Assembly: GCF_000143415.4 (NCBI RefSeq) | Contig: NW_003314329.1 | Coordinates: forward strand, 985,550-1,049,549 | Direction: 5' to 3' | DNA from: Selaginella moellendorffii | Taxonomy: Eukaryota; Plantae; Lycopodiophyta | DNA length: 64,000 bases | Shown here: positions 4,280 through 54,600 of the stretch, piece by piece | Position numbering within the stretch: position 1 is the first letter of the stretch | Layout: each line of letters begins with the position of its first letter | Notes under the pieces: model-generated | What the model saw: only the letters and a program-made list of their open reading frames with translations | Database searches by the model: none | What the model was told of the DNA's origin: nothing | Made by a program: the position numbers and the translations under genes

Positions 4280-4434
4280 GCCGCGCGGCGTACTGCCAAG
4301 TAACGGTATCTTACCGCGCGGTATGGCGGGCTAACTGACACTCAAAGCAATCCAATGTGGATGACCCGCGCATTTCTCTTTTTTGAAAAAAGTGCCCTAT
4401 TAGAAATGGGGAATTAGGGTTTCAATCTCCGGCG
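4275..4434. promoter_or_regulatory. Short divergent (probably bidirectional) promoter between the PPR and channel genes, with a telo-box and two CCGCGCGG elements
   Basis: 155 bp between the PPR ATG (4279, -) and the predicted channel ATG (4435, +); TTAGGGTTT (reverse telo-box AAACCCTAA) at 4414-4422; CCGCGCGG at 4281 and 4314. Confidence 0.5.
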
Positions 4435-15433: not shown

Positions 15434-15535
15434 TGAGTATGTTGCTTTTACTTTCTTTGACCAAGTATTTGTAATCTTCATATGTGAGTATATTGCCTTT
15501 ACTTTCTTTGACCAAGTATTTGTAATCTTCATATG
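15434..15535. repeat. 51-bp tandem duplication (2 copies)
   Basis: tgagtat(g/a)ttgc(t/c)tttactttctttgaccaagtatttgtaatcttcatatg at 15434 and 15485. Confidence 0.85.
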
Positions 15536-18500
15536 TATATTGCTTCTTTTTTTCAGAAAAGTGCTAAAGTTGAGCTTGTGGTTCTGGATGTAAAGCACTC
15601 TTCAAATTCAAAGCTTGTTTCAACCAAAACTTGAAACTTCAAATTTATCAAGTTCACCTATTCTTCAACTAGCAAAATATGTGATACATGTTATGGTTTT
15701 TGGATAATTTGTGTTATAATAGACTATATGTGCAAAACTTTTGTTAGATAGAACCATATAAACTAATCACAATGTTGTGAAGGATCATTATATTGTCATC
15801 ATCCCCAAAAACAAGGTGCTAGAGTGTATAAAGTTCCTATGATAATCTACTTACCACATAATTTTCCTATAATCTGAGTAAAACACTTGACTACAGATCT
15901 TGCTCCAAGTTAGCATATAACCACTCAATCTTATGAATCTTTTGTGTTTTGATTTGGAAGCACCTAAGCTCTTAGTTGCTCGGAAGCATTAGTCCTTCTC
16001 GTTCTTTAGTAACATACTTGTACTCGGAATGGTGCAAATTTGTTAGTTGCTTCGGCTCACTTGCTTGTTGCCTTCTTCTAATAGTTTCAAGGTTCCTAAT
16101 TAGTTTTTTTGTAAATTGAATTTCAAGATCATTTAAAGCTAATCTTATTGCTTTTATGAGCTTGTGACTAGAAAATTGTGTTGATGTTATAATAGATAAG
16201 CATGCCACTAAATCCTCAAGATTTGGTCTATTTCCTATAATTTAGTTTTTTATATAAATGTGCATAAAGGTCTTTTGTAGAATAGAAATGACCAAATCAT
16301 TCCAGCAAGCTTTAAATAGAGGTACATATTTAGAGCCACCTATTTTTACTAGCCACATCGCATGGTAATCTCAATAAGATTTGTTATTAGAAATTGGGTA
16401 GCAACTATTTTAGAACTCATCTACAATAAAAAAAAATTAATAAAAAAGATCAATGCTAATATTTGCTTACATGAGAAATAATTAAAGTCCCCTGATGTGA
16501 AAAACAAGTGAACCATCATGCTAACCATGTTTGTAGTCCTAGAATGGCTTTCTCATATGCATTACCTCCATCCCACTACAAAAGTATAAACTTGTATTGC
16601 TTTTTTACATTTTCTAAAGTGTTTGGAGCTTTTAATCACTAGCATAACTGATTGTGCTTATCATGGTATTTAACTCAAATGCATTTTTCGTATGTTCATG
16701 TAGTGTAAATGATTAAATTTTCTATTTTACTTTAATCACTTAACTACACCTTTAGCCACTTGGAGGAGTCTCACTCATAACTTCCATAAGTTTTATTCTT
16801 GACTTAGAGACATATTATCCCCAAGAATGGCATTTATGCCATTTAGCCTTTGCACTTGGTTGTAGCGCACTTGAATTTGGAGCCGAACTCCAAGCCCATT
16901 GCACTACGAAACGAGGGTTCGGTACAATCCCATGAGCACCAACTCCCCGTATCCAGCACCTGCACGCAAAATGGTGTTAGACGGAGTTTGGCACAATTTT
17001 GGCATATTGATGGCCTAACGTGAGGAGGAGGGTACCACACCGACTAGAGTAGCAATGTCTCAGGTGGTCAGACATGCATTCCAATCACTATCTCTACTAT
17101 ACATTTGGAACCCCCTATATCCCCCCCCCCTTGAGGAACATATGCTTTGGGCTTTCACCCCGAGTCTCCCTTAGCTAGGAGTTAGTCTCTGGGACAAGCT
17201 TAAATCTTACTAAATATGGGATGTCCTTAGATTATGAATTTAGATGTGGGACAAACACCATTGTGTTCAGGCCGATCTCTACATTCCATAGATATGCCAA
17301 ATGAGTAAATCTAGACACTTCCCATAAATAGCATTTGGGACCAAAATGAGACTAACACAAAGGGCATGATAGCGAGGGTGTTTGGCAGACATGATAAGCT
17401 ATCATCCAGCGATATTAAGGGACTAGTCTTAACACGCAAGAGTTCTTGTCACTAGCAAGTGCAAAACAAAACGAGACAGGAACTCCTTACCGGGCTAAGT
17501 ATGCTTAGCTAATAGCACGTAGGAATTCCGTCCTTATACTCGTCTGGTCTAAGTACACTCAAAATGCTTAGTTAACTCCACTAGCACAAGAGGGGCTACC
17601 AAAGGGATCCAACTGTACTGACATTCTGTCGTCATGGCAGTAAAAAAAGAGTGTCTGTAAGAACTGGCCGACAAGTATCTTTCGATACCCGAAGTCACAT
17701 TCGCAACACTCTCCCCCCCTTAGGGAAGATTGATGTCCTCGTCGATGCATACCCGAGTCTAGCAAATTGTCAAGGAAACAACTCCGAAAGTTAACGGAAA
17801 GCACACTATGTGGGAAACACATCGACTTAAATGAGTTATGGAACGACCTCTCCTCTACGTCTAAAGACGTTAAGACTCAGACACCCTCTGGCCGTCACTA
17901 ACAAGGAAATGACTAATGAAGTTAGCCACCCTTGCTACTTCGAGGACCACTCGGCTTACAAAGGAATGATACATCCCTGCCCGCAGGGACATAGGGAGAA
18001 GGCTAGAGGCCTAACTTCCCCTGAGCAAGAAATCAACCCCGTCGGGAAGATTTAAACAACTATTATAAATTGGTAGATTAAGTTATTTACGCAACCACGC
18101 CCCTTTTCAAAAATGAGTTATTGAGAGAGAGGCAGGGATTTGTGATCAGTCTATAATAGTTATCCCTATGGTTATGGATTGGACCCATTGTAAGCCACAA
18201 ATTTTTCCTTTCCAATTTGCCAGCTTACCTCGTCTACCCGTCCAAGACTGCCTTGGCTTTTGCTAAGTTCCCTTGCCAAGGTTCTCGCCTATGGTACCAG
18301 CTCCTACTTGGTCTCAGCTACTCACTGCACGAGCAACGGAGTGTTAGCCATCCATCCACGGATTCCCAAATCACTCCCAATCCCCCTCCCCGGGTTAGAC
18401 TGAACTTAAGGTTCGGCTACACTCCCCGCAAGCACAAGCAGCCAAGCACACCAAGCTTCCAGGTTCCTAACATCCTTTGGTACCACAAGACTTGATCATG

Positions 18501-18964
18501 GGACCCTCTAAATCCCAAGTCTTGAGTGCATCACTTGCTTCGGGACGCTGGGGCGAAACACCGTGGCCTAGCGGCCCGGTATGGGTACCTCTCGCCCCCC
18601 ACTTCCATCCCGAAGGAAGGCCCAAGCCCCTAGGAAGGGCGAGGACCAATGAGCCGCATGGTACTCAAGTGGGGCACCACTCCACATGAGCCGGGAGCAC
18701 CGCAATCGGTTTCCCTTTCGGGAGTGGGAGCTGCTCTTGAGCACTTCCTTGGATGGCCCCTCCGGCACCAACCAAGTCCATGCTCACTCCCACCCAAGGC
18801 CCCTCGGTCCCAGTCCCAACCTCAAGTCAGTTTGGGAGCCCCACTGGAGAGTCCCTTCTAAACTGGTTCCTGGACCTCCCCTGCAGCCCCCCCCCCCCCC
18901 CCTGGGAGACGCACGCTTTGGGCTTTCACCCCTTGACCCGTATTAGTATTTGGACTTAGTCTCT

Positions 18965-19340
18965 GGCTCGATCTCGGACCCGATTTTGGATCCGACTTCG
19001 GATTCGGGTTCGGACTCGATCTCGGACTCGATCTCGGACCCGATCTCGGACCCGACCTCAGACTCGACCTTGGACTCGGTCTCGGACCCGATTTTGGATC
19101 CGACTTCGGATTCGGGTTCGGACTCGATCTCGGACTCGATCTCGGACCCAATCTCGGACCCGACCTCAGACTCGACCTTGGACTCGGTCTCGGACCCGAT
19201 TTCGGATCTCGGACTCCGTCTCGAACTCGGTCTCGAACTCGGACTCGAACTCGGTCCCCGAGTCGGTCTCGGACTCGATTCCGGACTCTATCTCGAACTC
19301 GTTCCTAGAGTCGGTCTTGGACTCGATCTTCGACTTGGTC
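18965..19340. repeat. CpG-rich hexamer/dodecamer array (ctcgga / ctcgaa / cccgat variants) inside family-A LTRs; related arrays in C LTRs (40700-41120, 42100-42360, 56015-56440)
   Basis: Direct reading; produces low-complexity S/D/L/G ORFs in the six-frame track. Confidence 0.85.
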
Positions 19341-19822
19341 CCATCCGATGAACTCTTTGTCATTTTGGTCATGCTTTCGGGGTTCCTTTAGCCTACGACA
19401 CGACAGTTGGTTCCTTACAACTCCACCACCCATAGAAGAAGTTCGATGCCCACATCGAACGTCTCGTTTTATCCTACGACTTGTTGACCATGTCTCCGGG
19501 GGCATCCCCCCACTTAGCGGTGTGCCTAAGTTAGCCTCCCCGGCCAAGAGCCCATGACAATGGAATATAGGTGTCCCTATACTCCTCACCTCACCACGCC
19601 CTAGTATAGGGTCGGGACTTGAACCCAGCCTTGCTTTACTAGGGGGTTGGGACTCGAACCCAACCTCTGTAGAATACGTCTACGGATTTAACATCCCCGC
19701 AGGGAGTCGGGCGTAGCTCCCTACGCCTGGTCGACCTAGCTAACCCATGCTAATTAACTTACCTTCAGCGCGCCTTCGGGTCCCAACATATGCCACTTGC
19801 TCAACTTTGCAAATTGATATTT

Positions 19823-22800
19823 TTAATTGAACTTTGCATAAGTACATAGAGTTCTGCCTTGCAGAAATTCCTCCACTAGATCTCGCGTGTTCGCTAGGTT
19901 CTCCTCCGGTTCCCATGTTGCTTCGCAGTGTGGAAATCCTTTCCACTTCACATGGAACTCTCTCACCTCGCGTCCTTGTTGCTTGCTCTTGCGCGCATTG
20001 AGGATGGCCTCGACTTCCCCATCTCTCGAGGAAGTCGGAGTCGGTAAGCCACTTTACCAATTCGTGCCTCAATCTCGTAAGGCCCTGCGAACCTGCTTAA
20101 GGAACTCAAGATCAATTCATTTACAGGAATACATGCATTTTTACCTTTGGGTCAACTTTCGGCTGATCCCACTTGGTAGCCTGAGGTTCTTGGTGTTCAG
20201 CCACACCTTCTCCCCAGCTTGGAACTCTACATCCCAACGCTTTAGGTTCGCATACTTGGTTTGCCTTTGTTGAGCCCGTTCCAAGGAATCCCTCACTAGA
20301 TTCCAAATGTTGAGTCTTTCCGCCGTGAATGCCTCCACTGCGGGTAGCTCTCCATGATACTCGGCCACGCCGAGTTCCACAGGACCTTCAATAGCTCGCC
20401 TATTGATGACTTCCCATGGACTCACCCCGATACTCGAATGTGGTGAGTTGTTATAACACATTTCCGCAAGTCCCAAATGACTTACCCAATCGGTCTGGTC
20501 TCCCGAGACATAGCATTGCAAATAATCCTCCAGCTGCCTATTCACCCTTTCCGTTTGTCCGTCTGTCAAGAAGTGTTAGGACCACCAAACTTGACTTAAT
20601 ACCCCATACCTGTCTGTGGGTGATAGGCTGTGCTGAATTTCAACTTGGTGCAATACTGTTCCAGGAGGGTCCTCTAGAACCTACTAGTGAAGATCTTATC
20701 TCGATCTGAGATAATCTCTTCTGGCCTTCCCCGCACTCGAACCACTTGTTCGAAGAACAGTTTCGCCACACCTTCCACATCCACTTCCGTTGTGGTGGGT
20801 ATGAAATGTGCCATCTTCGAAAATCGATCCACCACCACGAATATCGCATCGAACCCCTCGCTTGGGGGTAGTCCCGTGATGAAGTCCATCGTAAGACATT
20901 TCCACGGACGATCTGGAATTGGGATGCTTTGCAACAAGCCCCCACTAGCCTTAGTCACGGCTTTGACCTGCTGACATGTTGGACATGTCTTTACATAGTC
21001 TTGGACGTCCTTGGCCATATCTGGCCAATGGTACTTCCTCTTGAGTAAGCCCATCGTCTTGGGCACTCTGCCGTGTCCCGCAAGAGGTCCGTCATGACAC
21101 TCTTCTAAGGCTACCTTCCTTAGTCCCCCTTCTGGAACATATACCCTTGTTTGCTTGTAATAAATGAGTCCGTTGCGTTCCGCATAGCCCGTTTTCTCTT
21201 CCGTTGGCAGCTCACCTCTCTGGTGAGCTTCCCGCGCCTCCAGATTCCTCAACAACACTTCTTGTGCTAGACCATCGTTCTCATATGCTGTCCGCACATC
21301 GTCCCAGAAGGTTGCTGTTGCGCTGGAGATCGCCAACCTCAAGCTCGCTTTTCGACTTAGCGCATCTGCCACGATGTTGCTCTTCCCATGCTTGTACAGA
21401 ATCTCGCAATCAAACTCGGCCAAGGCATTGGCCCACCGACCTTGTTTCCCTCTCAGGTCGGGCTGTGACAAAAAGTGTTTCGTTGCCACATTGTCCGTGT
21501 AAACCTTGAAGTGTCTCCCAAGGTAGTGTTGCCACTCCTTGAGCGCCTTGACCACCACAAACAATTCCTTCTCATGGGCAGGCCACTTCCGTTGAGCCTT
21601 GTCCAACTTCTTCGAGAAGAACGCTACTGGATGGTTGTCTTGCTTCAAAACTGCGCCCATCGCAAAGTCTGAAGCATCCGTGTCTACCTCAAAGTCCTTA
21701 CCAAAATCTGGTAATGCCAACACCGAAGCCTTCCTCAACTTCCCTTTGAGGTGGACGAATGCCGCCTCGCATTCCGCTGTCCATACCATCTTCCTTTTTC
21801 CTGTTTGGTCCGTTAAGGGCAGGGCTACTCTTGAATAGTGTCTGATAAACTTTCGATAGTAGTTGCATAGCCCCAAGAACACCCTCAACTCATGTACATT
21901 CAAAGGTCGTTCCCATTCCTGGATCGCTTGGACCTTCTCCGGGTCCACCTTGAGCCCGTCCTGGCCCACCACATACCCGAGAAACTTTACCTCTTGTTGA
22001 GCAAAGTCACATTTGCTCTCTTTAGCATACAGTTTGTGTTCCCTTAGTTTCTCAAACACCTTCGTCAAGTGTTCGGCATGCTCCTCTAGCGTCTCGCTAT
22101 AGATCAGGATATCGTCGATATAGACGACCATGAAGTGATCCAGATAGGGTACAAAGATGTGGTTCATCAACGCCGAAAACGTTGCCGGCGCATTGCACAG
22201 CCCAAAGGGCATCATCAGAAACTCAAAGCTCCCATACCTCGTTCGACAGGTTGTCTTCTCGACATCTTCCTCAGCTACCCTGATCTGGTAGTATCCTGAC
22301 CTTAGGTCAATCCTCGAGAAGTATTTTGCCTTTCCCAACCTATCGAACAGGTCCTCAATCCTTGGCAAAGGGTACTTGTTCTTCTTGGTATACTTGTTGA
22401 GCAACCGGTAGTCTATGCACATGCGCATAGATCCATCTTTCTTTTTCACAAATAGCACCGGCGCCCCATACGGCGACTTGCTCAACCTAACATACCCTTT
22501 GTCTACCAACTCCTCTAGTTGGCTCTTGAGCTCCTTGAGTTCTTTTTCGTTCAATCGATAGGGTGGACGAACCACCGCCTCAGCACCCTCGACCAGCTCA
22601 ATCTTATGTTCTATCGGTCGTGCGGGGGGCAACCCCGCCGGTAGCTCCTCCGGCATGGTATCTTGGAATTGGTCCAGCACCCGCTGGATCACTAAAGGTA
22701 CTTCTTCCGTTCTTGTCTTTTTGTCACTCTTCACCGAGAGTAAGCACAAAAAGGCTGCCTTAGTTCCTTTAGTGAGTTGTCCTTTCGTGGACACCAGGTT

Positions 22801-24483
22801 TAAGCATGACTCTTTGGCCTTGCTTTGCCCTACCTTTAGATCCTGGGCCTCCACCCTAGATCTTCTTCCTTGGGCATTCGCCAATACCACAAGGTTCCTA
22901 CCTTGTCCATGCAGGGCTACCACGAACCGATTAAACCAATCCATTCCGAAGATCACATCAAATCCCGCCATGTCCAAGACGGTGAAATCCATGTCCACTT
23001 TCCATGTCCCCACTTCGACTCTCGCTTGTCGAAGTACCTCATCAGTGCTTTGGCTACCCTGAACAAACTCTATAGTCCTTGGTTCGCCTAGCCGCTGCAC
23101 CGTTAGTCCGGCTTGCCGGACTATGTCTGCAGCCACAAAATTATCCGAAGCACCCGTGTCAATAAGGATCTTAACAAAGCTACCTCCGAGCTTCCTTCGG
23201 AGGGCTAGTAGATGTCGCAAACGACTCTCTACCAAAGTTGCTTGTGTAATGAGTAACTTTGAGTTAGGGATTGGATCACATACCTCAGTTTGGACTTCAC
23301 CCGACTTGATGGCCATATTGGCTCTGGCCTTCTTCGGGTAGGGACATTCCCTCGAGAAGTGTCCCGCTTTGCCGCAGTTGTAGCATACGTTGTTTCCCAC
23401 GCTGCTATACGACTTGACCTTCTTATCCGTGGGTTTGTCTTTTTTCGCTTGACTCCCCCACGTACTCGCTCGCTGGCCACCGGATTTGCCTTTCCGGAAC
23501 CCCGAGGACTCATTCTTAGAGAAACTCTTCTTGAATTTCCCCTTGCTATACGTTCCCCTTGGTTTGGCCCCTTTGCTAAATGTGGATCCCGACCCCGTCG
23601 TGTTCCCCTTTCGCAGGTTATCGTTGAAATGCACCTTGATGGCCGCATCCAACGCTTCCTTGTAGTTGGTCGGGTTCCACCACATCACCTCACTGCGAGC
23701 CCATGTTTGCAAACCTGATATGAAGGCATGGAACGCATCCACATCCCCCATGTCCGTGACAAGTATCCTCTTTGCCATGAACCCATTCACATATTCCTGA
23801 ATGGTTCCAGTCTGCTTCAGCCTACTCAGCTCATCTCTCAGATGCAGAGTGGCATTCGGAGGAACGTATGTTGCGCGGATCCGCGCCTTCATCATGTCCC
23901 AAGTGGCCACTGGTCCTTCATTGGCCTCTGTCGTTCTCCACCAAGACTTGGCATTATCTGCCAAGTATGGTTTTGCACATGGGACCTTCTTCGAGCTCGG
24001 TAATCGCAACGCTCGGAAGTAGTCCTCCATATCGTAAAACCAATCCTCCACCACTTTATAGTCGTTCACTCCCTTGAAGACCGGTGGGGGCTTTGGTTTG
24101 TATTTGGGAACTGCCTGAGGGACTGATTCTACTTCAGTCTGTTCGACCTTGTCTGGTTTTGCCTCAGTCCCGGCCGAAAGATCCGCACCTTCTGCGCTGC
24201 CAGCATCCGCAGTCTTTTTCTTTTTCTTCCGCCTCTCGTCACGCTTTAGCTTGCATACGAGAGTTTCCAGCAGGGCATTGGTCTATGCCAACTGTCCTTC
24301 TAGCACGTCCAATCGAGCCTTGGACGACCGAACCTCGCCACCGGACTCCTGTTTGGAAGTTTCCTCACTAGAGTCCTCCTCATGCAAGGATTCCTCATCC
24401 ATAGCCTCTTGTTCGACCAGAGGCTCCAGCTCCGGCGGAGGTTCCGTCTCCGCCTGGGTTCGCTTACGCCCTGCCCTTGCCAT
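19823..24483 (-). pseudogene. A1 gag-pol (gag, CCHC knuckle, protease, RT, RNase H, integrase, chromodomain) with two putative introns, nonsense mutations and a ~110-bp deletion near 20015
   Basis: [44 protein letters not shown]2C2 zinc finger, MDFITGLP; stops at 24283 and 20674; introns 20563-20609 and 20093-20144. Confidence 0.9.
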
Positions 24484-26748
24484 CTCCCAGCAATCCGCCT
24501 CTATCCTTCGCTAGAACTGAGATAAAGGCTCCGATACCAAATTGTAAGCCACAAATTTTTCCTTTCCAATTTGCCAGCTTACCTCGTCTACCCGTCCAAC
24601 ACCGCCTTGGCTTTTGCTAAGTTCCCTTGCCAAAGTTCTCGCCTATGGTACCAGCTCCTACTTGGTCTCAGCTACTCACTGCACGAGCAACGGAGTGTTA
24701 GCCATCCATCCACGGATTCCCAAATCACTCCCAATCCCCCTCCCCGGGTTAGACTGGACTTAAGGTTCGGCTACACTCCCCGCAAGCACAAGCAGCCAAG
24801 CACACCAAGCTTCCAGGTTCCTAACATCCTTTGGTACCACAAGACTTGATCATGGGACCCTCTAAATCCCAAGTCTTGAGTGCATCACTTGCTTCGGGAC
24901 GCCGGGGCGAAACACCGTGGCCTAGCGGCCCGGTATGGGTACCTCTCGCCCCCCACTTCCATCCCGAAGGAAGGCCCAAGCCCCTAGGAAGGGCGAGGAC
25001 CAATGAGCCGCATGGTACTCAAGTGGGGCACCACTCCACATGAGCCGGGAGCACCGCAATCGGTTTCCCTTTCGGGAGTGGGAGTTGCTCTTGAGCACTT
25101 CCTTGGATGGCCCCTCCGGCACCAACCAAGTCCATGCTCACTCCCACCCAAGGCCCCTCGGTCCCAGTCCCAACCTCAAGTCAGTTTGGGAGCCCCACTG
25201 GAGAGTCCCTTCTAAACTGGTTCCTGGACCTCACTATCCCTACTATACTTTTGGAACCCCCTGCAACCCCTCCCCCCCCCTGGGAGACGCACGCTTTGGG
25301 CTTTCACCCCTTGACCCGTATTAGTATTTGGACTTAGTCTCTGGCTCGATCTCGGACCCGATTTTGGATCCGACTTCGGATTCGGGTTCGGACTCGATCT
25401 CGGACCCGATCTCGGACCCGACCTCGGACTCGACCTTGGACTCGGTCTTGGACCCGATTTCGGATCTCGGACTCCGTCTCGAACTCGGTCTCGAACTCGG
25501 ACTCGAACTCGGTCCCCGAGTCGGTCTCGGACTCGATTCCGGACTCTATCTCGAACTCGTTCCTAGAGTCGGTCTTGGACTCGATCTTCGACTTGGTCCC
25601 ATCCGATGAACTCTTTGTCATTTTGGTCATGCTTTCGGGGTTCCTTTAGCCTACGACACCTCGGCGAGTTGGTTCCTTACACCCATGCACTGAAGTGCCG
25701 AAGTCAGCCTGCCAAAACTGACCCAAGTACTAATGAACAAGAGAAACGAAACTTTGATTTATAGAAATATATTACTTTATTGATTTGCAAGATTTATTAC
25801 AACGTTTACAAAAACAAGTCTTCATTACTACTTTCATACTGTGTGACAAGCTCATGAGCATGTACAAGATTCCTAAGAGGTTCCCAAGTTGATTCACAAG
25901 TCGGGTAACCTTCCACTTAACTAGATATTCCTTGGAACGAGCTTGTCTCCGAGACCAAGAATCCAAGATAGCTTCAACTTCGTATTTTAGTTCACCGTCC
26001 ACAACGTCTGGTGGCGGGTGAATCTCCCCTTGACATGCAATATCCATAGTGTAAGGAGCCAATAGATTGGCATGAAATACATTATGAACATTGGACATCT
26101 CCGTAGGCAGATCCAACCGATAAAATACATCACCAATGCGTTTTAACACCTGATAGGGTTTGACATATCTCAGCAAAAGCTTCCGAGACAAAGAACCCTT
26201 AGTGTTCAAGTTCTGGGAAGATAGCCACATCTGATCTCCCACTTGATAGGATATATCCAGATGATGCTAATCCTTATCACGTCAATACCTATCCTGAGCT
26301 TTACCCATTGCCTCAGTAGCTCTAGACCAACTTTGGCGTAACTGCTCCGCATAAGTGTCAATGGCCGGGACTAACACTTCAGACATTGGTTTCGGTACAA
26401 CAATCTGTTGAAGAACCCCACAAGCATTCCCTTACAGCATCTCCTACGGAGAACAACCAATGGTGCTGTGAAATGTGTTGCTATAATAGATTTCTGCTAT
26501 GTCTAAATGCTACACCCAATCGTGTTGGTCTGCCGCGACATAGTACCGCAGATAATCCTCTACTTGAGCATTCACGTGTTAGGTCTACCCATCAGTTTGA
26601 AGATGACAAGCCATACTAAACTTCAACTTGGTACCAAACAGCTGGAACAATGTGCCCCAAAACTTTCCTATAAATCTCGAATCTCTATCCAAGATCATCT
26701 CTTCGGGAAGACCACGAACCTGAACTACTTCATGGAAAAAGAGCTTTG

Positions 26749-29700
26749 TGTAAGCCACAAATTTTTCCTTTCCAATTTGCTAGTTTACTTTGTCTATCCG
26801 TCCGACACTGCCTTGGCTTTTGCTAAGTTCCTTCGCCAAAGTTCTCGCCTATGGTACCAACTCCTACTTGGTCCTACTTGCTTTCAGCTACTCACTGCAC
26901 GAGCAACGGAGCGTTAGCCATCCATCCACGGATTCTCAATCTCTCCCAATCCCCCTCCCCGGGTTAGACTGGACTTAAGGTTCGGCTACACTCCCCGCAA
27001 GCACAAGTAGCCAAGCACACCAAGCTTCCAGGTTCCTAACATCCCTTGGTACCACAAGACTTGATCATGGGACTCTCTAAATCCCAAGTCTTGAGTGCAA
27101 CACTTGCTTCAGGACGTCGGGGCGAAACACCATGGCCTAGCGGCCCGGTATGGGTACCTCTACCCCCCCACTTCCATCCCGAAGGAAGGCCCAAGCCCCT
27201 AGGAAGGGCGAGGACTAATGAGCCGCATGGTACTCAAGTGGGGCACCACTCCACATGAGCCGGGAGCACCGCAATCGGTTTCCCTTTCGAGAGTGGGAGC
27301 TGCTCTTGAGCACTTCCTTGGATGGCCCCTCCGGCACCAACCAAGTCCATGCTCACTCCCACCCAATGCCCCTCGGTCCCAGTCCCAACCTCAAGTCGGT
27401 TTGGGAGCCCCACTAGAGAGTCCCTTCAAAACTGGTTCCTGGACCTCACTATCCCTACTATACTTTTGGAACCCCCTGCAGCCCCCCCCCCTCTGGGAGA
27501 CGCACACTTTGGGCTTTCACCCCTTGACCCGTATTAGTATTTGGATTTAGTCTCTGGCTCGATCTCGGACTCGATTTCGGATCCGACTTCGGATTCGGTC
27601 TCGGACTCAATCTCGGACTCGATCTTGGACCCGATCTCGGACCCGACCTCAGACTTAACCTTGGACTCGGTCTCGGACCCGATTTCGGATCTCGGACTCG
27701 GTCTCGAACTCGGTCCCCGAGTCGGTCTTGGACTCGATTCCGGACTCTATCTTGAACTCGGTCTCCGAGTCGGTCTTGGACTCGATCTTCGACTTGGTCC
27801 CATCCGATGAACTCTTTGTCATTTTGGTCATGCTTTCGGGGTTCCTTTAGCCTACGACACCTCGGCGAGTTGGTTCCTTACAACTCCACCACCCATAGAA
27901 GAAGTTCGATGCCCACATCAAACGTCTCTTTTTTATCCTACGACTTGTTGATCATGTCTCCGGGGGCATCCCCCCACTTAGCGGTGTGCCTAAGTTAGCC
28001 TCCCCGGCCAAGAGCCCATGACAACGGAATATAGGTGTCCTTATACTCTTCACCTCACCACGCCCTAGTATGGGGTCGGGACTTGAACCCAGCCTTGCTT
28101 TACTAGGGGGTTGGGACTCGAACCCAACCTCCGTAGAATACGTCTACGGATTCGACATCCCCGCAGGGAGTCGGGTGTAGCTCCCTACGCCTAGTTGACC
28201 TAGCTAACCCATGCTAATTAGCTTACCTTCGGCACGCCTTCGGGTCCCAACATATGCCATTGCTCAACTTCACCAATTGATACTTTTAATTGAACTTTGC
28301 ATAAGTACATAGAGTTCTGCCTTGCAGAAATTCCTCCACTAGATCTCGCGCGTTCGCTAGGTTCTCCTCCGGTTCCCATGTTGCTTCGCAGTGTGGAAAT
28401 CCTTTCCACTTCACATGGAACTCTCTCACCTCGCGTCCTTATCGCTTGCTCCTGCGCACATTGAGGATGGCCTCGACTTTGTATTCCTCTTCCCCTTGGA
28501 TAACCTCAGGTAAAGGCCTTACTTGGTCCTTGCGAAGCGAATCCTCAAAGTACGGCTTGAGTAAGTTCACATGGAACACGGGGTGCATCTTCCCCATCTT
28601 TCGAGGAAGTCAGAGACGGTAAGCCACTTTACCGATTCGAGCCTCAATCTCATAAGGCCCCGCGAACCTGCTCAAGGAACTCAAGATCAATTCATTTACA
28701 GGAATACATGCATTTTTACCTTTGGGTCAACTTTCGGCTGATCCCACTTGGTAGCCTGAGGTTCTTGGTGTTCAGCCACACCTTCTCCCCAGCTTGGAAC
28801 TCTACATCCCGGCGCTTCTGGTTCACGTACTTAGTTTGCCTTTGTTGAGCCCGTTCCAAGGAATCCCTCACTAGATTCCAAATATTGAGTCTTTCCACTG
28901 TAAATGCCTCCACTGCGGGTAACTCCTCATGATACTCGGCCACTCCGAGTTCCATAGGACCCTCAATAGCTCGCTCATTGATGACTTCCCATGCACTCAC
29001 CCCGATGCTCGAATGTGGTGAGTTGTTATAACACATTTCCGCAAGTCCTAAATGACTTACCCAATCGGTCTGGTCTCCTGAGACATAGCATCGCAAATAA
29101 TCCTCTAGCTGCCTATTCACCCTTTCTGTTTGTCCGTCTGTCAAGAAGTGTTAGTGCCATCAACTTGACTTAATACCTCATACCTATCTATGGGTGATAG
29201 GTTGTGCTGAATTTCAACTTGGTGCGATACTGTTCCAGGAGGGTTCTCCAAAACCTACTGGTGAAGATTTTATCTCGATCTGAGATAATCTCTTCTGGCC
29301 TTCCCTGCACTCGACCCACTTGTTTGAAGAACAGCTTCGCCACACCTTCCACATCCACTTCCGTTGTGGTGGGTATGAAATGTGCCATCTTCGAAAATCG
29401 ATCCACCACCACGAATATCGCATCGAACCCCTCGCTTGGGGGTAATCCCGTGATGAAGTCCATCGGAAGACATTTCCACGGTCGATCTGGAATTGGGATG
29501 CTTTGCAACAAGCCCCCACTAGCCTTAGTCACGGCTTTGACCTGCTGACATGTTGGACATGTCTTTACATAGTCTTGGACGTCCTTAGCCATATCTGGCC
29601 AATGGTACTTCCTCTTGAGTAAGCCCATCGTCTTGGGCACTTTGCTGTGTCCCGCAAGAGGTCCGTCATGACACTCTTCTAAGGCTACCTTCCTTAGTTC

Positions 29701-32700
29701 CCCTTCTGGAACATACACCCTCGTTTGCTTGTAATAGATGAGTCCGTTGCGTTCCGCATAGCCCGTTTTCTCTTCCGTTGGCAATTCACCTCTCTGGTGA
29801 GCTTCCCGTGCCTCTAGATTCCTCAGCAACACTTCTTGTGCTAGACCATCGTTCTCATATGCTGTCCGCACATCGTCCCAGAAGGTTGCTATTGCGCTGG
29901 ATATTGCCAACCTCAAGCTCGCTTTCCGACTTAGCACATTCGCCACGATGTTGCTCTTCTTAGGCTTGTATAGAATCTCATAATCAAACTCGGCCAAGGC
30001 ATTGGCCCACCGACCTTGTTTCCCTCTCAGGTTGGGTTGTGACAAGAAGTGTTTCGTTGCCACATTGTCCATATAAACCTTGAAGTGTCTCCCAAGGTAG
30101 TGTCGCCACTCCTTGAGCGCCTTGACCACCGCAAACAATTCCTTCTCGTGGGCAGGCCACTTCCATTGAGCCTTGTCCAACTTCTTCGAGAAGAACGCTA
30201 CTGGATGGTTGTCTTGCTTCAAAATTGCGCCCAACGCGAAGTCCGAAGCATCCGTTTCTACCTCAAAGTCCTTACCAAAGTCTGGTAATGCCAACACAGG
30301 AGCCTTCCTCAACTTCCTTTTGAGGTGGATGAATGCCGCCTCGCATTCCGCTGTCCATACCATCTTCCCTTTTGTTGTTTGGTCCGTTAAGGGTAGGGCT
30401 ACTCTCGAATAGTGTCTGATAAACTTTCGGTAGTAGTTGCATAGCCCCAAGAACGCCCTTAACTCGTGTACATTCGATGGTCGCTCCCATTCCTGGATCG
30501 CTTGGACCTTCTCCGGGTCCACCTTGAGCCCGTCTTGGCCCACCACATGCCCGAGAAACTTTACCCGCCGAGCAAAGTCACATTTGCTCTCTTTAGCATA
30601 CAGTTTGTGTTCCCTTAGTTTCTCAAACACCTTCACCAAGTGTTTGGCATGCTCCTCTAGCGTCTCGCTATAGATCAGGATGTCGTCGATATAGACAACC
30701 ACGAAGTGATCCAGATAGGGTACAAAGATGTGGTTCATCAACACCGAAAACGTTGCCGGCGCATTGCACAGCCCAAAGGGCATCACCAGAAACTCAAAGC
30801 TCCCATACCTCGTTCGACAAGTTGTCTTCTCGACATCCTCCTCAGCTACCCTAATCTGGTAGTATCCTGACTTTATGTTAATCCTCGAGAAGTATTTTGC
30901 TTTTCCCAACCTATCGAACAGGTCCTCAATCCTTGGCAAAGGGTACTTGTTCTTCTTGGTATACTTGTTGAGCAACCGGTAGTCTATGCACATGCGCATA
31001 GATCCATCTTTCTTTTTCACAAATAGCACCGGCGCCCCATACGGCGACTTGCTCAACCTAACATACCCTTTGTCCACCAACTCCTCTAGTTGGTGCTTGA
31101 GCTCCGCGAGTTCTTTTTCGTTCAATCGATAGGGTGGACGAACCACCGCCTCAGCACCCTCAACCAGCTCAATCTTATGTTCTATCGGTCGTGCGGGGGG
31201 CAACCCCGCCGGTAGCTCCTCCGGCATAGTATCTTGGAATTGGTCCAGCACCTGCTGGATCACTAAAGGTACTTCTTCCGTTCTTGTCTTTTTGTCACTC
31301 TTCACCGAGAGTAAGCACAAAAAGGCTGCCTTAGTTCCTTTAGTGAGTTGTCCTCTCGTGGACACCAGGTTTAAGCATGACTCTTTGGCCTTGCTTTGCC
31401 CTACCTTTAGATCCTGGGCCTCCACCCTAGATCTTCTTCCTTGGGCATTCGCCAATACCACAAGGTTCCTACCTTGTCCATGCATGGCTACCACGAACCG
31501 ATTAAACCAATCCATTCCGAAGATCACATCAAATCCCGCCATGTCCAAGACGGTGAAATCCATGTCCACTTTCCATGTCCCCACTTCGACTCTCGCTTGT
31601 CGAAGTACCTCATCGGTGCTTTGGCTACCCTGAACAAACTCTATAGTCCTTGGTTCGCCTAGCCGCTGCACCGTTAGTCCAGCTTGCCGGACTATGTCTG
31701 CAGCCACAAAATTATCCGAAGCACCCGTGTCAATAAGGATCTTAACAAAGCTACCTCCGAGCTTCCCTCGGAGGGCTAGTAGATGTCGCAAACGACTCTC
31801 TACCAAAGTTGCTCGTGTAATGAGTAACTTTGAGTTAGGGATTGGATCACATACCTCAGTTTGGACTTCACCCGACTTGATGGCCATATTGGCTCTGGCC
31901 TTCTTCGGGTAGGGACATTCCCTCGAGAAGTGTCCCGCTTCGCCGCAGTTGTAGCATACGTTGTTTCCCACGCTGCTATACGACTTGACCTTTTTATCCG
32001 TGGGTTTGTCTTTTTTCGCTTGACTCCCCCACGTACTCGCTGGCCACCGGATTTGCCTTTTTAGAACCCCGAGGACTCATTCTTAGAGAAACTCTTCTTG
32101 AATTTCCCTCTGCTATACGTTCCTCTTGGTTTGGCCCCTTTGCTAAACGTGGATCCCGACCCCGTCGTGTTCCCCTTTCGCAGGTTATCGTTGAAATGCA
32201 CCTTGATGGCCGCATCTAACGCTTCCTTGTAGTTGGTCAGGTTCCAGCGCATCACCTCACCGTGAGCCCAAGTTTGCAAACCTGATATGAAGGCATGGAA
32301 CGCATCCATATCCCCCATGTCCGTGACAAGTATCCTCTTTGCCATGAACCCATTCACATATTCCTGGATGGTTCCAGTCTGCTTCAGCCTACTCAGCTCA
32401 TCTCTCAGATGCAGAGTGGCATTCGGAGGAACGTATGTTGGGCAGATCCTCGCCTTCATCATGTCCCAAGTGGCCACTGGTCCTTCGTTGGCCTCCGTCG
32501 TTCTCCACCAAGACTTGGCATTATCTGCCAAGTATGGTTTTGCACATGGGACCTTCTCCGAGCTCGGTAATCGCAATGCTCGAAAGTAGTCCTCCATATC
32601 GTAAAACCAATCCTCCACCACTTTATAGTCATTCACTCCCTTGAAGACCGGTGGGGGCTTTGGTTTGTACTTGGGAACTGCCTGAGGGACTGATTCTACT

Positions 32701-34264
32701 TCAGTCTGCTCGACCTTGTTTGGTTCTACCTCAGTCCCTGCCGAAGGGACCGCACCTTCTGCGCTGCCAGCATCTGCAGTCTTTCTCTTTTTCTTCCGCT
32801 TCTCGTCACGTTTCAGCTTGCGTACGAGAGTCTCCAGCAGGGCATTGGTTTGTGCCAACTGTCCTTCTAGCACGTCCAATCGAGCTTTGGACGACCGAAC
32901 CTCGCCACCGGACTCCTGTTTGGAAGTTTCCTCACTAGAGTCCTCCTCATGCAAGGATTCTTCATCCATAGCCTCTTGTTCGACCGGAGGCTCCAGCTCC
33001 AGCGGAGGTTCCGTCTCCGCCTGGGTTCGCTTACGCCCTGCCCTTGCCATCTCCCGGCAATCCGCCTCTATCCTTCGCTAGAACTGAGGAAAACGCTCTG
33101 ATACCAAATTGTAAGCCACAAATTTTTCCTTTCCAATTTGCTAGCTTACCTCGTCTATCCGTCTGACACTGCCTTGGCTTTTGCTAAGTTCCCTCGCCAA
33201 GGTTCTCGCCTATGGTACCAACTCCTACTTGGTCCTACTTGCTTTCAGCTACTCACTGCACGAGCAACGGAGCGTTAGCCATCCATCCACGGATTCCCAA
33301 TCTCTCCCAATCCCCCTCCCCAGGTTAGACTGGACTTAAGGTTCGGCTACACTCCCCGCAAGCACAAGCAGCCAAGCACACCAAGCTTCCAGGTTCCTAA
33401 CATCCCTTGGTACCACAAGACTTGATCATGGGACTCTCTAAATCCCAAGTCGTGAGTGCAACACTTGCTTTGGGACGCCGGGGCGAAACACCGTGGCCTA
33501 GCGGCCCGGTATGGGTACCTCTACCCCCCCACTTCCATCCCGAAGGAAGGCCCAAGCCCCTAGGAAGGGCGAGGACCAATGAGCCGCATGGTACTCAAGT
33601 GGGGCATCACTCCATATGAGTCGGGAGCACCGCAATCGGTTTCCCTTTCGGGAGTGGGAGCTGCTCTTGAGAACTTCCTTAGATGGCCCCTCCGGCACCA
33701 ACCAAGTCCATGCTCACTCCCACCCAAGGCCCCTCGGTCCCAATCCCAACCTCAAGTCGGTTTGGGAGCCCCACTAGAGAGTCCCTTCAAAACTGGTTCC
33801 TGGACCTCACTATCCCTACTATACTTTTGGAACCCCCTGCAGCCCCCCCCCTGGGAGACGCACGCTTTGGGCTTTCACCCCTTGTCCCGTATTAGTATTT
33901 GGATTTAGTCTCTGACTCGATCTCGGACTCGATTTCGGATTTGACTTCGGATTCGGTCTCGGACTCGATCTCGGACTCGGTCTCGGACCCGATCTCGGAC
34001 TTGACCTCGGACTCGACCTCGGACTCGGTCTCGGACCCGATTTCGGATCTCGGACTCCGTCTTGAACTCGGTCTCGAACTCGATCTTGAACTCGGTCCCC
34101 GAGTTGGTCTCGGACTCGATTCCGGACTCTATCTCAAACTCGGTCTCCGAGTCGGTCTTGGACTCGATCTTCGACTTGGTCCCATCCGATGAACTCTTTG
34201 TCATTTTGGTCATGCTTTCGGGGTTCCTTTAGCCTACGACACCTCGGCGAGTTGGTTCCTTACA
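26749..34264 (-). mobile_element. Full-length Ty3/Gypsy chromovirus family A, copy A2; LTRs 26749-27882 and 33110-34264; TSD CTTTG; inserted in the integrase of B1
   Basis: CTTTG at 26744-26748 and 34265-34269; PBS TGGTATCAGAGC 33095-33106; B1 integrase NAKQAAK|LFFHEVV is split at the insertion. Confidence 0.95.
28286..33050 (-). pseudogene. A2 gag-pol with chromodomain, two putative introns, a frame disruption near 32050 and nonsense mutations
   Basis: ORFs 32061-33050, 29188-31971, 28716-29144; chromodomain YKVEAILNVR...FHVKWKGFPHCEATWEPEENL; introns 29138-29183 and 28668-28719. Confidence 0.9.
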
Positions 34265-48664: not shown

Positions 48665-51600
48665 TGTCGCGAATGTGACTTCAGGTATCGAAAGATATTT
48701 GTCGACCAGTCCTTACGGGCACTCTCTCCTTACTGCCACGACAGCAGGAGGTCGGTACTGCTGGTTCCCTTTGTGGTCTTTGCCCAAGCTAGTTGAGAAA
48801 CTAGTTAGCACATGTGCACTTAGACCGGAAGGGCACTAAGGAAGGAAATCCTAAGTTGTCATTAAGTCAAGCATACTTGACACGGTGATGAGAAACTCAT
48901 GATGTTGATTTGCACTTGCTAATGTTGGGAACCCCCGCGATATTGAGACTAATCCCTCAATATTCGCTAGATGATAGCTTACTGTGTTTGCCAAACACCC
49001 TCACTATCACGCCCTTTGTGTTGATCTCATTTCGGTCCCAAATGCTATTTAGGGAAAGTGTCTAGATTAACTCATTTGGCATATCTACGGAATGTAGAGA
49101 TTGGCCTGAACACAATGGTGTTCGTCCCGTGTCCAAATTCGCAATCTAAGGACATTCCATATTTAGTAAGTTTCGGACTTGTCCCAGAGACTAACTCCTG
49201 GTACTAAGGGAGGCTTGGGGTGAAAGCCCAAAGCGTGTGTCCCTCAAGGGGGGGGGGGGGGGGCTTTGGGGGGTTCCAAATGTATAGTAGGGATAGTGGT
49301 TGGAATGCATGTCTGACCACCTGAGAACAACAAGGAACAAGGTGTCGCTCCTTGTTCTGCGTCCGGCTTGGGTCTAAGCCCAAGCTCCACGCTGCTCTAG
49401 TCGGTGGAGTACCCTCCTCCTCCCGGGGTATGCCAAAATCGTGCCAGACTCCGTCTGACACCATTTTGCGTGCAAGTGTTGGATACGGGGAGCTGGTGCT
49501 CGTGGGATTGTACTGGACCCTTGTTTCGTAGCGCAACGGGCTTGGAGTTCGGCTCCAAATTCAGGTGCGCTACATTTGGTATCAGAGGAATTGTCTCAGC
49601 GATTCCTATCCAACTTTTGTCGGATTTTCTGACTCAAGTTGCATACGCAGAGACTTTTCTAGTAGATCCAAAGTGACCTGTGTAGGATTAGTTGGATTGC
49701 ACCATTCGGTAAGAACGTTGTATGCATGTTCAGTTACTGGTAGAGGCATGCATGCAGCTAGCGGGATGGTGAAACGGAACCGTGCTGATGACGCTGAAAC
49801 CTCTAGACAGGCAAATCGAGAGGAGGAAACTCCTGCTAGAGATGGTGCAGAAGAGGCAGAGGCTGAGTCAGAAGAGGAAGAGCCAGATGCTGCGGTGCTG
49901 TAGCAAACAGCTCAAGAAGTCGAGATCGAGAATTTGCGAAAGGAGATTCTCAAATTGAAGAAGGAGAACAAGAAGAGGAAGAAAGAGGCTGAGGTAACTA
50001 AACCAGCTAAGCCTAAGCAACCGAACTCCTCTTTGAGTTCTGAGGACGATGAAGTTCTGCAGCTGCCCCTGGTTGCACGAGTTTCAAAGTTCAAGCCCCC
50101 GAAACCACCCAACTTTAGAGGCATGCGGGACTATCAAGTTTTGGAAGACTGGGTCTACGATATGGAAAACTATTTCATAGCGGCAGACGTAGATGATCGT
50201 ACGAAAGTTGCGTGTGCGCAATCCTTTCTCACCGATCATGCCAAAACTTGGTGGCGCCAGGTGTGTGCTGAAAAAGGGTAGCCTAGAAGTTGGACCAAGA
50301 TGCGGTCTCGTATCCGTAAGGAATACTTGCCGGATGATCTTGGTCTGAGACTTCGCACGGAGCTGTGGCGGTTAAAGCAGCGAGGGGATCTCATGCATTA
50401 CGTTAATGCGTTTGCTCAGAAGCGCATTATGATTGCAAATATGAGTGACGAAGATGCTCGGAGTTATTTCCTGGAGGGTTTGAGTTCACTTTCTCATAAT
50501 GAGATTTTGAAGTTTAAGCCAAAGACGTACCTGGAGTGTAAGGAGGCGGCGCAGCAAGTTGCCTTTAGTCACTCGCTTATGGAACAATATCAGCAATCGT
50601 ATGCTGGTAACTCGGATAAGAATAAAAATTCTGGGAATAAACAAGGTGATCGGAAACAGAGGGTGGAAAGTAGGTTCTGCCCTAGAGGCTCACAAGCAAC
50701 GGTTAACAAAGGTGGTGGTGGTTGGAGACCACCAGCAGCTTCTTCTGGTCCTAGGCCCTCTGTTCCTCCTCCTGGTGGGTACAAGCAGCAGCAACCTGCA
50801 AAACTTGCTCCTAGCGGAACGGGTAGTGTGGGTCATTGCTTCCATTGTGGAGAGTCGGGACATAGGTCCTCGGAATGCCCCAACAAGCATAAGACAAGGT
50901 CTCGGGTTAATGTCATGAGGGAAGATGGTGGTGATGAAGCTGAAGGGGTTGACGAGTTGGTCAATGCAGACTATGAGGAAGAAGAGGTGAGTAACTTTCG
51001 TTGCTTTCCTCAAGCTTTTCTTGCAGTCAATGCAAACACTGATCTGTTGATGTATCTGGTAGGCTTTGTCCGTGGACACTGAATCCGAGTGATGATTGAC
51101 ACGGGAGCTACGCACAACGTGATATCCGAAGACTTAGTTAAGTTGTTAAGATTGAATGCTGAGCAAATGTCGCCTATGCACTTCCGGTTTGCGGAAGGTG
51201 GGCAAGTACCCAGAAAGTTTGTGAGTGATGTTCCAATAAAGATATCCAAGTGGAAAGAAAGAGTGGACTTGGTAGTGTTGAAGATACCAGATTTTCAGAT
51301 GGTGTTTGGTATGGATTTCTTCAACAAGTATATAAAAGGGATTTATGGTGCTGGACAAAGTCGAATCACATTGAAGTCAGAAGGACGTCCTGATGTATCC
51401 TTCCAGTTGCAAAAGCGCTCCTCAAAGGATTGGGATGCTAAGTTCTTGACTGCGAGGGCCGCTCAAAAAGCAGCTAAGAAGGGATGTCGGACCTTTTGGG
51501 TTCAAGTGATGGAAGCTGAGGGTATTGGTGACTCAGTTCGAATCGGCGACAGGGTTGATCCTGTACCAAAGAAGATATTGGAGTTGTTGGCGTGGAATCA

Positions 51601-54600
51601 GGATATCTTTCCGAAGGATTTACCGCCAGGGTTACCACCTAGCCGTGAGGTTGATCATTGGATTGAGGTTATTCCAGGTTCTAAACCACCTACGAAAGCT
51701 CCATATCGGTTGAACATCAAGGAGATGGCTGAACTCAAGAAGCAACTCACGGAGCTTCTTAACAAAGGTCATATCCGACCAAGCAAGTCACCTTATGGAG
51801 CGCTGGTCCTTTTCGTTATGAAAAAGGATGGAACCATGAGGATGTGTATTGACTATTGGGCACTCAACAAGATCACGGTCAAGAATAGTTATCCTTTGCC
51901 TCGCATTGATGACTTCTTTGACCAACTCTTAAAGGCTAAGTATTTTACGCGACTTGATTTGCGGTCCGGGTATCATCAGATACGGGTGGCAGATCAGGAT
52001 GTGGAGAAGACAGCCTTTAAGACTCAGTACGGATCTTATGAGTTCCTTGTCATGCCATTCGGGTTATGCAATGCTTCGGCAATGTTCAGCACTATGATGG
52101 ATAGAATATTCGGAGATTATCTGGACACATTTGTTGTCCTATATATCGATGATGTTCTGGTCTTCAGCGAAACGTTGGAGGATCATTTGAAACACTTGGA
52201 GCTGGTGTTTCAGAAGTTGCGCGAACACAAACTGTATGCTAAGGAAAGTAAATGCGCTTTTGGTCAATTGCACGTAAACTTTCTTGGACATATAGTTGGT
52301 GGTGGCGTGATTGAAGTCGATCCAAAGAAGGTGGAAGCGGTGAAGTCCTGGGAAGTCCCGACCACTATATCAGATGTTCGTTCCTTTCTCGGTTTGGCGG
52401 GATACTATCGCAAGTTTGTCCGCAATTTTGCAAGAATTGCTCTTCCGTTGACTGAGTTGACGAAGAGTAGTATTCCGTTTCATTGGACACCAGCTTGTTA
52501 GCGTGCTTTTGTACGGTTGAAGGAGATCTTGACTATGGTTCCTGTTCTCAGGATCCCAGATCTTGATAAACCCTTCGAAGTGCATTGTGATGCATTTGGT
52601 TATGCTATTGGTGCCGTGTTACAGCAAGATTGTGACAAAGCAGTTGGTGTTAAGCTAAAGCGACATGGTTGTCCCATTGCATTCTATTCCAAGAAATTGG
52701 ATGAAACCCAATGAAGATGGCCAATGCATGAGAAAGAGATGTTTGCTATAGTGTCGGCCCTGGAACACTAGAGACACTACTTGGGTGGACATACCAAGGT
52801 TTATACGGATAGTAACACACTAAGCTACTTTGCTACGCAGCCTAAGCTTACACCGAAGCAGGCTCATTGGCAAGAGAAGCTTGCCAGATATGATATTGAA
52901 ATCATATATAAACCTGGTAAAGACAATATTGTTCCGGATGCGTTGAGTCGTCAAGCTCAATTCCGGGCAATATCGGCAATCAGTCCAGATTGGTTGAAGG
53001 ACGTTCGGGCTTCGTATGGAAGTGATCCATTGGTGAAGGCAATCATATGCCATGCGGGGTTGTTGAAGCAGAGCCCTGGTAGCGAAGCAGCAAAAGTTGC
53101 TAGTCGCACTAATGCAAAGCTTCACTTCTCAATTCGAGATGGGCTTATATTCTATAAGCAAAAAAGATTGTATCTTCCCTCTAAGGATCGTTAGCAGTTA
53201 TTTTTGCGGGAACATCATGATGTTCCAGCAGCAGCACATGGTGGACAACGAAAGACTCTGGCTTCGTTGAAAAAGGGATTTTTCTGGTCTGGTATGGAAG
53301 GTGATGTAGCGGACTATGTCCGTTCCTGCCCTATATGCCAGCAATGTAAGCGCAAAGCTGAGAAACAGGCTGGAAAGTTGCAGTGCATTCCAGCACCGGC
53401 ATGGCCATTTCAAAGTGTGACACTTGATTTCGTCACTTGCTTGCCGAAGTCTAAGGGTTATGATACTTTGATGGTGGTTGTGGATCGGTTGTCGAAGATT
53501 GCACACTTCATTCCAACTGTAGGAACAGTAAATGCGAAACAAGCAGCAAAGCTCTTTTTCCATGAAGTGGTGCGAGTTCGTGGTCTTCCTGAAGAGATGA
53601 TCTCAGATAGAGATTCGAAATTTACAGGGAAGTTTTGGGGCACACTGTTCCAGCTGTTCGGTACCAAGTTGAAGTTTAGTACGGCTTATCATCCTCAAAC
53701 TGATGGGCAGACCGAACACGTTAATGCTCAAGTTGAGGATTATTTGCGGTACTATGTCGCGGCGGACCAACGCGACTGGGTGGAGCATTTGGATACAGCA
53801 GAAATATGTTATAACAACACATTTCACAACACTATAGGCTATTCTCCATGGGAGATGCTGCAAGGGAATGCTCGTGGGGTTCCTCAACAAATTGTTGTAC
53901 CAAAACCAATGTCCGAAATGTTGGTCCCAGCCATTGAGACTTATGCGGAGCAGCTACGCCAAGGTTGGTCTAGAGCTACTGAGGCGATGGGCAAAGCTCA
54001 GGATAGGTATCGACGTGATAAGGATCAGCATCGTCGGGATGTATCCTATCAAGTGGGAGATCAGGTGTGGCTATCTTCCCGGAACTTGAACATTAAGGGA
54101 TCTTTGTCTCGGAAGCTGTTACCGAGATATGTGGGACCCTATCGGGTGTTGAAAAGACTTGGTGATGTATCCTATCAGTTGGATATTCCTCACGAGATGT
54201 CCAGCCTTCATGATGTGTTTCATGTCAGTTTACTGGCCCCATATCATGAGGATCCTGGCTGCTCTAGGGATGTTTGTCCAGCTCTGGATGTTATTGATGG
54301 TGAACCAGAATATGAGGTTGAGGCCATCCTCTTGTCTCGTAAGGCCCGTGGTGGTCGTGCGAAGGAATATCTCGTTAAGTGGAAAGGTTACCCGACTTGT
54401 GAATCAACTTGGGAACCTCTTAGTAATCTTACACATGCCCGTGAGCTTGTCACGGAGTATGAGAATAATAATAAAAGATAGTTTTTGTAAATCTTGTAAT
54501 AAATCTTGCAAATTAATAAAGTAATATATTTCTCTAAATCAAAAGTGTCGTTTCTCTCATTCGTTCGTACTTGGGTCAGTTTTGGCAGATTGACTTCGGC

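Follow-up and report, generated by a model that had tools for sequence, protein, structure and literature searches.

Two likely spliceosomal introns within the integrase of a Ty3/Gypsy chromovirus of Selaginella moellendorffii

Precise loss of an intron is a classic proof of retrotransposition. Some LTR elements, as far as the accessible text of the literature describes them, keep introns. Ogre elements (Ty3/Gypsy, Tat lineage) retain an intron in the genome and splice it from a subset of transcripts for the translation of RT-RH-INT (PMC6317226, PMC12786077, PMC3735527). In the accessible text of a 2025 review, Ogre and EVADE are the sole plant LTR elements listed with functional introns (PMC12786077). 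For BARE, the text of PMC3735527 available to us describes a translated RNA pool that lacks R and is not packaged, and states that spliced DNA copies were not found. We found no intron within the integrase of an LTR element in the accessible full-text literature searched, which included PMC2864245, PMC8557442, PMC7175516, PMC6839031, PMC12130899 and the bioRxiv preprints 2024.04.02.587720 and 2022.06.16.496473; subscription papers, bioRxiv supplements and Repbase/REXdb might hold one.

SM1-Galahad of S. moellendorffii was described by Novikov et al. (2012; PMC3350952) as an element of about 7.5 kb with LTRs of more than 1 kb and a Met primer-binding site (PBS). It is present in hundreds of copies with about 95% mutual similarity, none of which was found intact in 2012 (PMC3350952). 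The consensus was reported to carry an ORF of 3,885 bp (1,295 aa) that lacks a chromodomain, two further small ORFs (316 and 309 bp) downstream of it, and poly-G tracts of 11-25 (PMC3350952). The words "intron" and "splic" do not occur in the main text of that paper. SM2-Galahad, from the same source, has a length of 7,353 bp and an ORF of 4,731 bp (PMC3350952). Here we describe a family of the SM1-Galahad type in a 64-kb stretch of S. moellendorffii DNA, the whole of which is called the window. A first-pass annotation of this stretch had proposed an intron inside a Gypsy integrase.

Family A and its match to SM1-Galahad

Two full-length LTR elements of one family, family A, lie on the minus strand of the window. 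Copy A1 (18189..25681) is 7,493 bp long, is flanked by the target-site duplication (TSD) CCCAT and has LTRs that diverge by 1.2%. Copy A2 (26749..34264) is 7,516 bp long, with the TSD CTTTG and an LTR divergence of 3.6%. Both TSDs are perfect, as the first-pass annotation had stated, and both integrated copies carry the inserts described below. The 5' LTR of A1 (24543..25681; 1,139 bp) contains a poly-G tract and 12-bp tandem repeats, and is followed by a PBS (24528..24539), presumably of the initiator-Met type. Exon 1 (20610..24483) encodes gag, PR, RT, RH and the integrase N-terminal part as a single frame. The reading frame is interrupted in the integrase core by intron 1 (20563..20609; 47 nt, phase 1), which brings in a stop at 20598. 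Exon 2 (20145..20562; 418 nt) carries the catalytic Glu and the remaining integrase core and is free of stops in A1 and A2 alike. Intron 2 (20093..20144; 52 nt, phase 2) lies in the GPY/F-SH3 region at an AG|GT site. Exon 3 (19823..20092) covers the rest of SH3 and the chromodomain; a deletion of 112 nt near 20015 is private to A1. The 3' non-coding region (19420..19822) ends with the polypurine tract (PPT) and is followed by the 3' LTR (18189..19419; 1,231 bp). In A2, intron 1 is at 29138..29183 (46 nt) and intron 2 at 28668..28719 (52 nt). The 47-nt insert and its 46-nt twin had been pointed out in the first-pass annotation, and both were located in full-length elements. The 52-nt insert (20144-20093 in A1, 28719-28668 in A2) had not been mentioned there and was revealed by three-frame translation.

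Family A is a Ty3/Gypsy chromovirus: a Pfam scan gave the domain order GAG-PR-RT-RH-INT, and TG..CA LTRs, the 5-bp TSD, PBS and PPT were all found. Exon 3 of A2 aligns at 50% to a segment of copy B2 in which Pfam recognizes SH3_Tf2-1 and Chromo; judged from this alignment, a predicted C-terminal chromodomain is present. Copy B2 (48665..56014, plus strand; 7,350 bp, TSD GTGAT) belongs to a second family, family B, and has a frame of 1,577 codons. Its length and its 4,731-nt frame agree with SM2-Galahad. B2 is uninterrupted at both intron sites, as had been claimed for family B at the first of them, and serves as the intron-less comparator. The LTRs of B2 diverge by 4%, and its frame has seven internal in-frame stops. 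A third, older Gypsy family (about 41370-48430 and 57430-62550) has low CpG and many stops; its intron-1 site is without the insert. Arrays of 12-bp tandem repeats occupy 18900-19350 and 25250-25640 in the family-A LTRs; these repeats are about 66-70% like the arrays at 40600-41100 and 56020-56500 by copies of family B and the third family.

By published features, family A matches SM1-Galahad; the consensus sequences themselves were not compared directly. The element sizes (7,493 and 7,516 bp) and the LTR lengths (1,134-1,231 bp) agree, and the poly-G runs are 16, 9, 10 and 9, with 11-25 in SM1-Galahad. In A1, the ATG at 24483 and the stop that intron 1 brings in span exactly 3,885 nt, counted through two premature stops. 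The ATG-started frame of exon 2 is 318-321 nt long (316 bp in SM1-Galahad), and neither copy has an unbroken exon 3. Since the 3,885-bp ORF ends precisely at the intron-1 stop, both introns are most likely part of the published genome-wide consensus, where they would have been taken for ORF ends.

Both copies in the window are decayed. A1 has premature stops at 24285 and 20676, both in exon 1. In A2 there are a gag frameshift, a stop immediately ahead of intron 1 and two stops in exon 3. Because premature stops precede intron 1 in both copies, neither can encode integrase today. A1 and A2 were inserted at differing points within one family-B copy. Their sites, TSDs and ages differ, which indicates independent insertions and rules out a segmental duplication of a single one. 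The host copy (about 16860-39830, minus strand) received both of them in or just after its integrase; it also has a tandem duplication of gag at 36981-38094. The divergence of A1 from A2 is uneven, 2.1% in PR-RT and 6.3% in exon 2, which suggests past recombination between subfamilies.

The inserts as introns

We determined whether the inserts have the properties of spliceosomal introns. Insert 1 (20609-20563, minus strand) has GT..AG ends and a CTAAC motif with the branch A at -14, and lies five codons ahead of the catalytic Glu. All four inserts have GT..YAG ends and a branch motif (CTAAC at -14, TTGAT at -20). Each of them shifts the frame and contains an in-frame stop. GT..AG ends occur by chance in 127 of 15,715 random 47-nt stretches of the elements and in 149 of 15,710 stretches of 52 nt; when YAG and a branch motif are also demanded, the counts are 15 of 15,715 and 24 of 15,710. 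For either length this is about 1% and about 0.1%, respectively.

For comparison with host introns, we used the adjacent gene at 4435-10924 (plus strand). It encodes a four-domain voltage-gated Ca/Na-channel-like protein, has at least 21 very short introns and matches a 1,736-aa protein from S. moellendorffii in 22 segments with 87-100% identity, most above 95%; the species has several paralogues. Twenty of the 21 placed introns were taken, and a 107-nt intron of poor fit was left out. They are 47-78 nt long (median 57.5) with an AT content of 0.48-0.69 (n=20). The inserts are 46-52 nt long with an AT content of 0.57-0.67, and the exons of the element have about 0.50. Intron 1 of A2, at 46 nt, is 1 nt under the shortest of the 20 host introns. 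Thus, the donor, branch point, acceptor and host-like size proposed for insert 1 in the first-pass annotation were all found. Elsewhere in this part of the window there are an intact PPR gene (2390-4330, minus strand), an ORF with a B-lectin match that is weak and under the Pfam cut-off (13690-14568, minus strand), and a stretch of 26% GC at 14000-16000.

Removal of the inserts restores the integrase, as had been proposed for the catalytic-Glu region. The catalytic D..E spacing is 36 residues only when insert 1 is removed, and the alignment of the family-A integrase with the intron-less B2 integrase has no gap at the junctions. In the B2 alignment, the Glu five codons past intron 1 falls on a Glu of foamy-virus integrase, which we take to be the catalytic E221. 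With a profile of integrases built from 45 of 53 outside homologues, the A2 read-through (X at the breaks) scored 506.9 bits, B2 496.5 and the unspliced frame 220.6. Taken singly, the family-A exons 2 and 3 scored 134.8 and 116.9 bits, and the corresponding parts of B 127.6 and 110.1. The integrase motif is intact in 48 of the 53 homologues; these are continuous by construction and so are silent on how rare introns are. The unspliced frame ends before the catalytic Glu. Since the stop in intron 1 precedes this residue, unspliced RNA encodes Gag-PR-RT-RH and an integrase stump. Taken together, both inserts are likely to be true spliceosomal introns of the U2 type.

The first-pass annotation had also described the middle of intron 1 as diverged. 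Between A1 and A2 this divergence is not significant (4 substitutions in 46 nt vs a background of 4.4%, P=0.14); family-wide it holds, with 6 variant sites in the 47 nt of the intron vs 28 in 1,577 nt of coding sequence among the rows listed. Intron 2 differs between A1 and A2 at 1 of 52 nt. Intron 1 with its 40-nt flanks has a folding z of -2.5 against mononucleotide shuffles.

A quick tree of 49 integrase rows places A and B as sisters (SH-aLRT 97); the stem of A, at 0.45, does not exceed the branch of B, at 0.70. The simpler reading is that both introns were gained on the A lineage after its split from B. Short direct repeats border both inserts, and the gain probably took place at them: at 5 nt, repeated at the two ends of insert 1, and at AG|GT for intron 2. 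The two introns are unlike each other, and neither insert has a match of more than 11 nt elsewhere in the 64-kb window; an origin from introners is unsupported within this window.

Selection and read evidence

Because both introns are common to A1 and A2, the two copies diverged while already carrying them. We compared the number of synonymous differences between them with a context-matched neutral expectation. In exon 2, 16 of 26 differences are synonymous vs 9.1 expected (P=0.006), and the shifted frames give 5 and 6. For exon 2 with the start of exon 3 the count is 21 of 33 vs 10.9 expected (P=1e-4), and for everything downstream of intron 1 it is 21 of 38 vs 12.4 (P=0.003). Upstream of intron 1, RH-integrase has 38 synonymous differences of 74 (26.4 expected) and gag 24 of 47 (16.2 expected). 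No excess is seen in PR-RT (12 of 31 vs 11.0 expected), and none of the 5 differences in the chromodomain part is synonymous; both of these regions diverge by just 2-3%, about the level of post-insertion decay. From the variants of a DNA run, 40 of 154 rows were listed, of which 6 in the 3' non-coding region were dropped and 34 were classified. Among these rows, 5 of the 6 variants present at 15-85% downstream of intron 1 are synonymous (P=0.01), as are 4 of the 5 upstream of it, and about half of the A1-private variants are non-synonymous. At the level of such substitution counts, this shows that the integrase downstream of intron 1 has been under purifying selection between intron-bearing copies.

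We also assessed whether splicing is visible in RNA. About 12% of each of three RNA runs was read, with 9 matching reads in X22, 3 in X23 and 0 in X24. Depth arithmetic for X22 assigns at least 7 of the 9 reads to the minus column, leaving 2 in the plus column. One 150-nt read accounts for 11, 70 and 23 letters up to 20562 and for 46 letters in the bin that starts at 20610, and none of the six intron-1 sites listed (20580-20606) is covered. It has about two further differences, both common to most DNA copies. This intron-1-skipping read was deduced from bin depths and lies under the listing threshold; as a single inferred read it appears to fit spliced intron 1. The 5-nt repeat at the intron ends allows a template switch of the reverse transcriptase as its origin; alternatively, it could derive from a rare DNA copy that has no intron 1. 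In the 12 reads of the three runs there were no reads that skip intron 2 and none that retain intron 1. One X22 read appears to stop exactly at 20120, 25 nt into intron 2, and continues with unlike sequence; intronic polyadenylation, a chimeric locus or an adaptor are possible reasons. Two partial X23 reads share its bin. All three X23 reads are partial, mostly divergent and uninformative.

Reads of the DNA run X1 cover both inserts to a depth of the same order as that of the flanking sequence. Neither intron is matched by any of the best 15 of 39 joints, the weakest of which has a count of 138 vs summed depths of 310,000-595,000 in intron 1, and the listing at 5% contains no deletion of either intron. 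We consider an intron-less master family of A unlikely; the other 24 joints could include one isolated intron-less copy. Protein searches returned no family-A product, spliced or intron-less (best 42% identity among 53 matches), which is uninformative either way. A search for proteins of near length gave none, and in a further search the best of the 150 matches listed had 45% identity. A metagenome scan gave two loci, both unrelated. The first-pass annotation had named two results that would speak against splicing, a lack of junction reads and an intron-less autonomous master family. One inferred junction read was obtained, and no such family appears among the joints listed.

Proposed replication route and comparison with known systems

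We consider it probable that the two inserts are spliceosomal introns removed for integrase synthesis, that unspliced RNA is the form copied and that family A is autonomous. From one deduced read we infer splicing of intron 1 in vivo, and the autonomy of the family is read from the selection signal in the aligned copies. One family-A locus would yield both a spliced mRNA for the whole polyprotein and an unspliced RNA as the genome. In the translated pool, both introns would be excised to give full-length integrase, and the unspliced RNA would be packaged and reverse transcribed. The product of the spliced mRNA and the unspliced genome would come together in the particle, so that selection acts on the locus. 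Splicing would then set the dose of integrase, not the Gag:RT ratio. This division of roles between the two RNAs had been suggested in the first-pass annotation, and the selection downstream of intron 1 and the apparent intron-1-skipping read support it.

Intron loss is irreversible, and family B, which has no introns at these sites, thrives; hence something must bar the copying of spliced RNA. Within this explanation, we give about even chances to separate RNA pools as in BARE, in which the translated pool would lack a replication signal. Alternatively, a packaging signal may lie within an intron, or intron-less copies may be selected against. A more specific version, in which an autonomous LTR retrotransposon is locked into its introns since the splicing that enables integrase is coupled to loss of a replication signal, is tentative and in our view rather doubtful. 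Such a loss might come about through a 3' intron, through a different start site or through a co-spliced intron that spans the PBS and the end of the LTR. A candidate donor at 24582, at the end of the 5' LTR, is conserved in A1 and A2, and acceptor-like AGs lie right past the PBS (24582-24511, minus strand); as a hypothesis, an intron of 66-72 nt from this donor would remove the PBS. The donor agrees with the consensus at 7 of 9 positions, which 24 sites of A1 equal or beat and which is thus background, and the PBS-spanning candidates contain no YTRAY branch motif. The best donor-like site of family A is at 19762 (9 of 9 positions; 28226 in A2, 8 of 9; minus strand), about 60 nt past the integrase stop and ahead of the PPT. 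It could belong to an intron of the 3' UTR or serve as a U1 site.

It is unlikely, though consistent with every splicing and selection result, that spliced RNA is packaged too and that intron-less daughters are lost, through a cis signal in an intron or through silencing or harm. The introns would then be retained by selection and not by sorting. The near-invariance of intron 2 (1/52 nt) and the folding of intron 1 with its flanks (z -2.5) would fit a cis signal. However, dead-on-arrival intron-less insertions would be expected in the DNA and none is among the best 15 of 39 joints; moreover, the intron-less sister family replicates well and the middle of intron 1 varies freely.

We hold it to be somewhat less likely still that family A is non-autonomous, that the inserts disabled its integrase and that the SM2-Galahad integrase mobilises it, any splicing being incidental. 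No intact copy was known in 2012, the two copies in the window are defective and lie within a B copy, intact B copies have been published, parasitism of this kind has a precedent in BARE2, and the chromodomain part has no synonymous excess. Against this, two independent inserts have GT..AG ends at frame-restoring positions (a chance of about 1% each), the synonymous excess downstream of intron 1 exists between intron-bearing copies, exons 2 and 3 score as high on the profile as those of B, and one read appears spliced. That the inserts are short insertions which ribosomes bypass by recoding, or chance indels, with an artefactual junction read, would suit a single inferred read and the short direct repeats around both inserts, but it is very improbable given that each insert shifts the frame and contains an in-frame stop, that size, composition and ends are host-like, and that two recoding events within one domain have no support here.

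If the preferred explanation, with unspliced RNA copied and spliced RNA translated, is correct, hundreds of copies keeping two integrase introns imply strict sorting of translated and packaged RNA. With the introns as built-in markers, a long-open question of RNA sorting becomes testable through sequencing alone. The double intron gain is datable and has an intron-less sister family as control. If the element is indeed locked into its introns, ORF-based annotation would score such families as dead, and more of them may hide where introns are very short.

The systems closest to family A can be compared as far as their accessible descriptions go. Like Ogre, family A keeps its introns in the genome and would splice them out for translation of pol. 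In contrast to the single Ogre spacer of about 274 bp between two ORFs, it has two introns of 46-52 nt, a size typical of the host, within conserved integrase domains. It is a single-ORF chromovirus in which the integrase alone depends on introns, and its one frame from gag to integrase, with introns inside the latter, sets it apart from Ogre-type elements. BARE1, EVADE and copia also translate a spliced RNA and replicate an unspliced one (PMC3735527, PMC5580714); there, splicing cuts out pol to raise Gag, with the complete ORF present in the unspliced RNA, whereas family A would do the reverse. Foamy viruses make integrase from a spliced pol mRNA distinct from the packaged genome (PMC7828637), but they are retroviruses that excise gag in a single large splice and have a continuous pol frame, unlike the interrupted frame of family A. 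In Penelope-like elements introns survive retrotransposition, and one Selaginella family has an inferred intron (PMC8557442); these are not LTR/DDE elements and use another mechanism of priming and integration. The paper on SM1-Galahad treated the three exons as three ORFs, whereas we describe one frame with an exon-intron structure, and two introns thus re-explain a published family believed to have no intact copy. The first-pass annotation had set this splicing apart from that of known LTR elements. This is true of the position and type of the introns, and not of the logic, which is that of Ogre and of foamy-virus pol. Thus, both the family (SM1-Galahad) and spliced-pol logic were already known, and what is new is where the introns lie and of which type they are.
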